IMG/VR virus record: IMGVR_UViG_3300045988_089196 | Reading direction: 5' to 3' (one strand) | Source: a virus | DNA length: 64,000 bases | Shown: in pieces, positions 21,711 through 21,780 of the stretch | Layout of the letters: every line of letters starts with the position of its first letter | Position numbering within the stretch: position 1 is the stretch's first letter | Notes under the pieces: model-generated | The model's input: the letters and a program-made list of their open reading frames with translations, nothing else | The model's database searches: none | Told to the model about the DNA's origin: nothing | Position numbers and translations under genes: made by a program

Positions 21711-21780
21711 TTAGCCTCGTCCTGCTCCGAGTTTCCGATCGCGCATGCCCACCAAATTTTTCTTTCAAAAATATGCTTTG
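21711..21780 (+). repeat. conserved ~60-nt GC-rich intergenic element, copy 1. The second copy is at 45109-45167.
   Basis: TAGCCTCGTCCTGCTCCGAGTTTCCGATCGCGCATGCCCACCAAATTTTTCTTTCAAAAA versus TAGCCTCGTTCTGCTCCGAGTTTCCGTTCGCGCAGGCTCACCAAATTTTTCTTTCAAAA. Both follow a terminator. Confidence 0.6.

Follow-up and report, generated by a model that had tools for sequence, protein, structure and literature searches.

A 59-nt intergenic element duplicated upstream of the lysis and tail-fibre cassettes of a TAG-recoded gut phage

Late promoters of several phages are controlled by dedicated activators, among them Alt of TP901-1, Ogr/Delta of P2, C of Mu and p4 of phi29, which act through sites that are dyads or tandem repeats and for which the protein is known. 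According to the modular-evolution idea put forward for lambdoid phages, mosaic phage genomes have conserved boundary or linker sequences where their modules join. Antitermination sites, as known, are located downstream of a promoter and before the terminators. For transcription of the structural and lysis genes of SPbeta, YonO relies on one promoter only, the sequence of which was undefined in 2017 (PMC5467207). Stop-codon recoding has been proposed in a preprint to regulate the translation of late and lytic genes (bioRxiv 10.1101/2021.08.26.457843). Here we describe a 59-nt direct repeat found in IMG/VR virus record IMGVR_UViG_3300045988_089196, of which a stretch of 64,000 nucleotides was analysed in full (hereafter the window), and compare it with these systems. 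One copy of the repeat stands upstream of a tail-fibre cassette and the other upstream of a lysis cassette.

The two copies of the element were on the + strand, at 21712-21770 (copy 1, tail-fibre) and 45109-45167 (copy 2, lysis), and were identical in 55 of 59 positions (93%). No match was obtained in 100 dinucleotide shuffles. The duplicated GC-rich intergenic element of the preliminary description, which had been made from the letters of the window, is thus real. Its coordinates for copy 2 were accurate, and its interval for copy 1 (21711-21780) was slightly too wide. Each copy was also correctly said to lie just 3′ of a strong terminator. Copy 1 followed an intrinsic terminator (21676-21704, + strand) with a 12-bp stem, including 8 G-C pairs, and a T-run, which closes an upstream unit made of an AAA-ATPase gene and a tRNA-Met and dominated the fold of 21660-21790 (z = -3.5). 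Copy 2 followed an intrinsic terminator located after the SPFH gene (45068-45096, + strand; 13-bp stem and then a T-run; fold z = -5.0). The gap between terminator and element was 8-13 nt for both copies, and the distance from the element to the first ATG was 98 nt for copy 1 (to 21869) and 77 nt for copy 2 (to 45245). Repeat finding, an nhmmer profile and box searches permitting up to 3 mismatches detected no further copies in the window beyond chance, and both copies sit at gene-block boundaries. The first 42 nt of the element had a G+C content of 62-64%, compared with an intergenic mean of 33% and 37.6% in the whole window. Outside the tRNA array, it was the sole intergenic stretch of at least 60% G+C flagged by a composition scan, in which copy 1 was masked by a spurious ORF and so was not itself flagged. 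Most of the other promoters in the 30-43 kb region were found directly behind their terminator, and a G+C-rich insert was peculiar to the two units headed by the element.

About 25 related phage contigs formed the comparison set. The loci of the relatives were fetched via their PhoH-like gene. Exact-pattern scans conducted before that had reached only close relatives, where the element was detected at the two loci known from the window. A synteny search based on the SPFH gene was discarded, having returned mostly unrelated phages, as this gene is widely shared at ~77% identity. Orthologues of copy 2 were found at the same place in a sister lineage with only ~70% PhoH amino acid identity, in which each contig carried a single copy, always upstream of a 153-aa gene, PhoH and the lysis genes. 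Two copies were found only in the clade of the window (the window, 081499, 084596, QWCY01000074.1 and OLFV01000432.1). A degenerate pattern built from the conserved boxes recovered 29 IMG/VR stretches, one of which was a chance match in G+C-rich coding DNA. Each of the ~147-kb genomes had one or two copies, always at the same two loci. The element was not detected elsewhere in 1.6 Mb of related loci, and no third copy was found in contigs of 114-148 kb, including the region before the main structural operon. With so few copies at fixed loci, it is unlike dispersed repeat families of the REP or MITE kind, and the same low copy number spoke against a general late promoter, one of the functions suggested in the preliminary description.

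Since the sister lineage has one copy and the same gene order, the lysis copy is ancestral and the tail-fibre copy a later addition in the window's clade. The equal gene order of the single-copy lineage also ruled out a Campbell-type insertion of the 23-kb block between the copies. Identity between the two copies of a genome was 56/59 in 081499, 55/59 in the window and 46/60 in 084596. This variation fits independent drift together with recombinational replacement of the lysis module.

Conservation at the lysis copy was measured as mean pairwise identity across seven lineage representatives of the lysis-type element. The constrained core was made up of two boxes, CTCCGAGTTTCCG (Box A) and GGCYCASCAAWTTTTT (Box B), on either side of a freely variable, CpG-rich spacer of 8 nt, and strong constraint was confined to these boxes, about 37 of the 59 nt. 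In copy 2, Box A is located at 45122-45134 (+ strand) and Box B, reading GGCTCACCAAATTTTT and including an A3T5 tract, at 45143-45158 (+ strand). Box A was invariant in 13 of 13 columns (identity 1.00) and Box B in 12 of 16 (mean pairwise identity 0.91). Both values exceeded those of the flanks and form a phylogenetic footprint: identity was 0.84 in the core promoter, 0.66 in the 5′ untranslated region, 0.65 in the downstream coding sequence, 0.64 in the inter-box spacer, 0.51 in the terminator and 0.49 in the 5′ arm of the 59-mer. The changes in the spacer were transitions only, of the CpG-to-TpG/CpA type. The CpGs of Box A were kept in 7/7 representatives, and a minor variant (L008/L155) reads TTTCTG. 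As the invariance of Box A exceeds that of the coding sequence, it points to selection on the sequence of the box itself. No conserved inverted repeat was found in the element. Its sole repeat was a TCCG direct repeat, 8 nt apart, and an inverted CTCCGA/TCGGAG pair was present in one lineage only.

In every lineage the element was bounded by the T-run of a terminator on one side and by the -35 of a conserved promoter on the other. In the window, the lysis cassette has a predicted sigma-A promoter (45178-45206, + strand) with the -35 TGGATT, a 17-nt spacer and the extended -10 TGaTATAAT. This promoter belongs to the repeat families D1 and D2 of the window, which is rich in TTGAAA-N17-TATAAT promoters of the Firmicutes type. 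Across lineages, this promoter consisted of TTGATT or TGGATT, 17 nt and TGnTATCAT or TATAAT. Box A began 78-80 nt away from the -10 in all lineages, a spacing conserved as in a promoter-upstream site, and the core lay around -92 to -56, counted from the predicted transcription start. At least five unrelated terminators or upstream genes preceded the element across the seven representatives, while the promoter, the ribosome-binding site and the first gene were shared. Because the upstream terminators and genes vary and the promoter and first gene stay constant, the element belongs to the downstream unit. The view of the element as non-coding, conserved and tied to gene-block boundaries is supported.

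We suggest that the element is a regulatory DNA site upstream of a promoter (an activator site, an operator or a UP-like element) and does not act as RNA, a reading drawn from sequence comparison in which we have about as much confidence as doubt. A sequence-specific DNA-binding protein, encoded by the phage or by its host, would bind Box A and Box B, and the A/T tract may additionally contact the alpha subunit of RNA polymerase. Bound protein and A/T contact would together set the level or the timing of transcription of the cassette. The effect might be activation or repression, and it could be exerted late. In the window's clade, a 55-59-nt copy of this upstream module, minus the core promoter, was placed after a terminator and before the tail-fibre cassette, which would put the tail-fibre and lysis cassettes under the same control. 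Among the functions listed in the preliminary description, this agrees with an activator or promoter-associated DNA site, as the element lies upstream of the -35 and moves with the promoter; the RNA functions listed beside it did not hold up. As a motif the element is new in sequence but familiar in kind, and the evidence requires no new mechanism.

Several findings weigh against a promoter-upstream site. The boxes lack the clear dyad or helical-repeat symmetry typical of transcription-factor sites, and no cognate protein was identified for them. With its perfect extended -10, the promoter below copy 2 may do without an activator, and a consensus scan of the + strand below copy 1 found no sigma-70 promoter. 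The identity of copy 1 between the window and its relatives was 0.90, compared with 0.86-0.90 in the flanking intergenic DNA. Conservation at the left edge could also partly reflect repeated recombination at the module boundary. Two genes are candidates for a regulator. One encodes a winged-helix (MarR/TrmB-like) protein in the replication module (58622-59023), and the other, on the minus strand shortly before the first position of the window (about 9050-9193 in L208-L210), a ribbon-helix-helix protein.

Copy 1, which is specific to the window's clade, has an exact match to Box A (CTCCGAGTTTCCG) at 21725-21737 (+ strand) and a Box B, TGCCCACCAAATTTTT, at 21746-21761 (+ strand) with 2 mismatches to the family consensus GGCCCAGCAAATTTTT. 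A candidate weak extended -10 for the tail-fibre cassette, TGtCATTAT at 21802-21810 (+ strand), is speculative. It is located 80 nt from the start of Box A, compared with 79 nt to the -10 of copy 2. The duplicated piece begins at the left limit of the conserved DNA and stops some 10 nt ahead of the -35, leaving out the core promoter. In the 50 nt past the 59-mer, 23/50 positions matched between the copies, which is at chance level (p = 0.13-0.36). MAFFT aligned the DNA downstream of the two copies, but a longer duplication that takes in the core promoter was rejected, as 23/50 did not exceed the null obtained for A/T-rich DNA or for other TGnTATAAT promoters. Since copy 1 was no better conserved than its flanks, a function is assigned to it only by analogy with the lysis copy, and on that analogy it may take part in the control of the tail-fibre genes.

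A different conserved G+C-rich stretch, GGACCGCGCTCGGTGCAAACGCAAAGTGGCTTTAGAATTTTTC...GGCCAAAT, occupied the syntenic spot in the sister lineage, behind the terminator and upstream of the tail-fibre genes. It was single-copy and was seen in four loci (L014, L017, L025 and L026, at about 4330-4400 in locus coordinates). No homology between this stretch (GGACCGCGCTCGGTGCAAACGCAAAGTGGCTTTAGAATTTTTC) and the element was detected by nhmmer. Local alignments of the stretch with the lysis-upstream regions of remote lineages were marginal, with p < 0.005 in 3/10 pairs, where the p values were from mononucleotide shuffles only and the matches were due chiefly to AATTTTT and GGCMAAAT. When lineages were compared, orthology of their tail-fibre proximal promoters was not significant.

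The element is close in arrangement to the UP elements and class I upstream activator sites of bacterial sigma-70/sigma-A promoters. Like these, the element lies upstream of the -35 and has an A/T tract, its spacing to the core promoter is conserved (78-80 nt), and it is portable, having moved before a different core promoter. When compared with the UP consensus, which we take to be NNAAAWWTWTTTTNNNAAANNN, the stretch CCAAATTTTTCTTTCAAAATCC of the element matches 15/16 specified positions. However, its A/T tract is located at about -64 to -43 instead of -59 to -38, an upstream shift of ~5 nt, and the other lineages keep only AAWTTTTT of this tract. Box A, the best-conserved part, is G+C-rich and is located at about -92 to -80, past the usual reach of UP elements. 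The element is also similar to the sites of late-promoter activators in being short, conserved, upstream of a morphogenesis or lysis promoter and present in few copies per genome, and the promoter below copy 1, which looks weak, might depend on an activator. Unlike those sites, it shows no clear symmetry, and its lysis promoter looks strong unaided.

As in the linker sequences of mosaic phage genomes, lineages have different DNA on the left of the element but share the DNA on its right, and assemblies of mixed strains tend to break there. However, the change in identity between the window and its relatives, from ~80% over 20232-44149 to 95-98% over 44146-48285, is located away from the element, at 44146-44149, and a mosaic breakpoint at the element was thereby ruled out. 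The switch coincides with the start of the SPFH gene, and there are relatives with an extra segment of ~770 nt at this junction.

The boxes could instead be a promoter in their own right, for a phage sigma factor or a single-chain RNA polymerase similar to YonO, with transcription starting inside them or shortly after them and the sigma-A promoter being second and independent. In favour of this, conservation is stronger in the two boxes than in the sigma-A core promoter, there is no good sigma-70 promoter below copy 1, and YorF and YorH domains of the SPbeta type occur in the replication module. With its one or two copies per genome, ahead of lysis and structural genes, the element recalls the single YonO promoter of SPbeta, the sequence of which is left undefined in that paper (PMC5467207). 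However, neither the window nor 10 kb on either side of it contained a gene for an RNA polymerase or a sigma factor, and there was no YonO homologue in these 84 kb. Moreover, the main structural operon would need such a promoter, but it is not preceded by the element, and the contigs of 114-148 kb have no third copy. None of the sigma-54, ECF or sporulation-sigma consensi that were compared matched the boxes, and in a wider comparison none of sigma-54, ECF, the CodY box and the rrn or lambda boxA fitted or was conserved. In the sigma-54 comparison, the GG-to-GC spacing was off by one in the G+C-rich stretch of the sister lineage. We regard an alternative polymerase as unlikely. A bolder version is more doubtful again. 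In it the boxes would be the recognition sequence of a dedicated late-transcription machinery (a YonO-like polymerase or a new activator) that times lysis in TAG-recoded gut phages and was recruited to the tail fibres by the 59-nt transplant. A rather different possibility, improbable but deserving to be taken seriously, is that only the lysis copy is functional and copy 1 is a neutral patch left by recombination or gene conversion during an exchange of the tail-fibre cassette. This would account for a copy 1 that is conserved no better than its flanks, for the abrupt end of the similarity between the copies and for an intergenic region and a first tail-fibre-cassette gene that differ from those of the sister lineage, as after a cassette swap, in genomes that are strongly mosaic. 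It accounts less well for the fact that exactly the conserved upstream module was copied, with a terminator in the same relative position and a possible -10 at nearly the same distance (79 compared with 80 nt), and that copy 1 was kept in all sampled members of the clade, including the one with a lysis copy diverged to 46/60.

Repeats flanking a block of 23.4 kb, which includes tail-fibre, NAD and RNA-repair genes and the suppressor tRNA, could also be recombination sites, either att-like or acting through homology, at which this block is excised, deleted or duplicated. One ENA metagenome contig (L151, OGPY01001342.1) joins the left flank of copy 1 and the element to the right flank of copy 2, and another (L156, OGPC01001942.1) has the reciprocal hybrid junction, in which the element links the left flank of copy 2 to the right flank of copy 1. 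To either side of the junction, both contigs run collinear with the window. In addition, one IMG/VR "viral genome" of 24.1 kb (L002/L061, IMGVR_UViG_7000000297_000076) is the inter-repeat segment alone. However, the repeat is perfect over 55-56 nt in those relatives, a length that equals or exceeds the k-mer sizes common in assemblers, and breaks and mis-joins are expected of it, so that an error of path choice is the economical explanation. The hybrid junctions and the 24.1-kb record are probably assembly artefacts of the 55-59-nt repeat. Two contigs (L003 and L006) start or end inside the element, and two more (L002 and L008) end within ~30 nt upstream of it. No recombinase gene was found in or beside the segment at 21.7-45.1 kb, and its deletion, which would take away the suppressor tRNA as well as the tail fibres, would be lethal. 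In the sister lineage a single copy goes with an unchanged gene order, which shows that the block is not an insertion. We give recombination sites little credence. An action as RNA is, if anything, harder still to credit. The preliminary description had considered a small RNA, an antitermination element or an RNA-processing site, and the RNA could be a nut/put-like site, an RNase site in a read-through transcript or part of an antisense transcript. Being directly after a terminator, the element would be included in read-through RNA, and G+C-rich intergenic DNA elsewhere in this phage usually consists of RNA genes. However, the 8-13 nt that separate the element from the terminator are too few to hold a promoter. 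The element has no hairpin and is arranged unlike the known antitermination sites; its boxA-like TGCTC... is not conserved in other lineages. No Rfam family matched it at the gathering score. Folding compared with shuffled sequences gave z from -0.14 to +0.58 on both strands, and RNAalifold on 12 distinct homologues found 0 pairs on the + strand and a 3-bp stem without compensatory change on the - strand. A structured RNA was ruled out on these results. The spacer varies without a co-varying partner, and promoter-like matches on the minus strand occur at differing positions in the two copies. The least credible explanation, which we scarcely entertain, is a relic of the 3′ half of a tRNA, of coding sequence or of host DNA. 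It is prompted by the CACCA that closes the G+C-rich part of the element in the window's clade and recalls the tRNAs of this phage, which encode CCA. No T-arm could be drawn, ARAGORN and Rfam gave no call, and the other lineages read CAGCAA. A coding remnant was rejected, as the ORFs at 21571-21768 (- strand) and 45000-45200 (+ strand) are not conserved between the copies. A stop in copy 2 interrupts the only long minus-strand frame of copy 1, and across lineages the substitutions had no third-position bias and no frame was open or conserved. Exact and degenerate patterns were absent from 185,579 species genomes, excluding host-derived DNA, with one exception: a 147.8-kb contig that resembles a phage genome and was binned with a Eubacterium metagenome-assembled genome. 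No similarity to the element at the DNA level was found among GenBank phages, and no match to its motif in the literature searched.

The phage of the window is TAG-recoded and has all its genes on the + strand, and related contigs are 147-150 kb long. Each copy of the element heads a unit of ~4.7 kb closed by a terminator. The tail-fibre cassette (21869-26347, + strand, from TAG-aware ORFs) starts with an 85-aa gene, continues with three tail-fibre-like genes that contain in-frame TAG codons and ends in a terminator at 26351-26383. Two of its 3 large tail-fibre genes (22728-23792 and 25010-26347) matched Mtd_N and the PHROG "tail assembly protein" family. The lysis cassette (45245-49891, + strand) contains a 153-aa gene, a PhoH-like gene and genes for a NAGPA/SPOR protein, an endolysin and a 113-aa membrane-like protein, with in-frame TAG codons present among them, and ends in a terminator at 49893-49931. 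The best protein match of PhoH, at 35-40%, was to large Bacillus and Geobacillus siphoviruses. Between the copies there are tRNAs and genes for DUF2828/DUF7788, a major-vault-protein-like protein, an RNA ligase, an isochorismatase, phosphoribosyltransferases, NAD synthase, Thg1, a kinase and SPFH; these auxiliary genes have 0 TAG codons. TAG codons were also found in replication genes, of which those for ThyX, AAA_24 and DnaB lie to the right of copy 2 and a further one encodes UDG, so TAG is not limited to late genes. The preliminary description was thus right to place TAG-containing tail-fibre and lysis genes downstream of the copies, but TAG does not mark late genes alone, and its association of the element with TAG is only loose. 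Three homing-endonuclease-like genes exceeded the structural and lysis genes by far in TAG density. They were found at 8015-8962 (10 in-frame TAG and a repeated DLTGQ(K/R)FGRLT motif), at 10804-11325 (4 TAG) and at 56756-57667 (a GIY-YIG gene with 11 TAG).

ARAGORN detected 31 tRNAs in 10087-28761, including a suppressor with a CTA anticodon (27795-27869), which was labelled "Pyl". Rfam added two tRNA matches that ARAGORN had missed, at 19849-19967 (119 nt, with a possible intron) and at 20241-20325 (32 bits). The tRNA array contained a full-length ROOL RNA (18987-19582; Rfam RF03087, 350 bits), which adjoins a tmRNA (16376-16691) with the tag peptide DNDYFENYLAA. Several inter-tRNA spacers were G+C-rich (0.6-0.7) and had no tRNA or Rfam call (11827-11901, 12030-12147, 13046-13187, 13763-13913, 14850-14938, 15089-15172, 19737-19822 and 20169-20237), and that at 13763-13913 holds a T-arm-like GGGTTCGATTCCCAT. 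These spacers may be degenerate tRNAs or new RNAs. The major-vault-protein-like protein (30794-33229; MVP_shoulder 8e-18, with Vault repeats) is a neighbour of the DUF2828/DUF7788 protein (28891-30414) and shares the genome with the ROOL RNA, the RNA ligase (35910-37184) and Thg1 (42781-43626). A contig carrying the first gene of the window (L209, ERZ28521505 NODE_11) is 290,702 bp long, about twice the usual genome of 147-150 kb, and may be a concatemer or a chimeric assembly.

The element occurs in a group of human-gut phages that are abundant but uncultivated, have genomes of ~147 kb and translate TAG as an amino acid, and single proteins of the window recur in hundreds to more than 1,000 blocks of a public assembly index. 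For such genomes the repeat has a practical consequence, as its 55-59 nt break or mis-join short-read assemblies and can yield spurious 24-kb "viral genomes". A 13-nt box that is invariant across lineages ~30% apart in protein offers a handle on the transcriptional control of lysis in these phages. Box A could be used for DNA-affinity capture, in reporter assays and in the annotation of lysis cassettes in related metagenomic genomes. The duplication, if it acts as we propose, would be a clean natural example of regulatory rewiring by transplantation of an upstream module.

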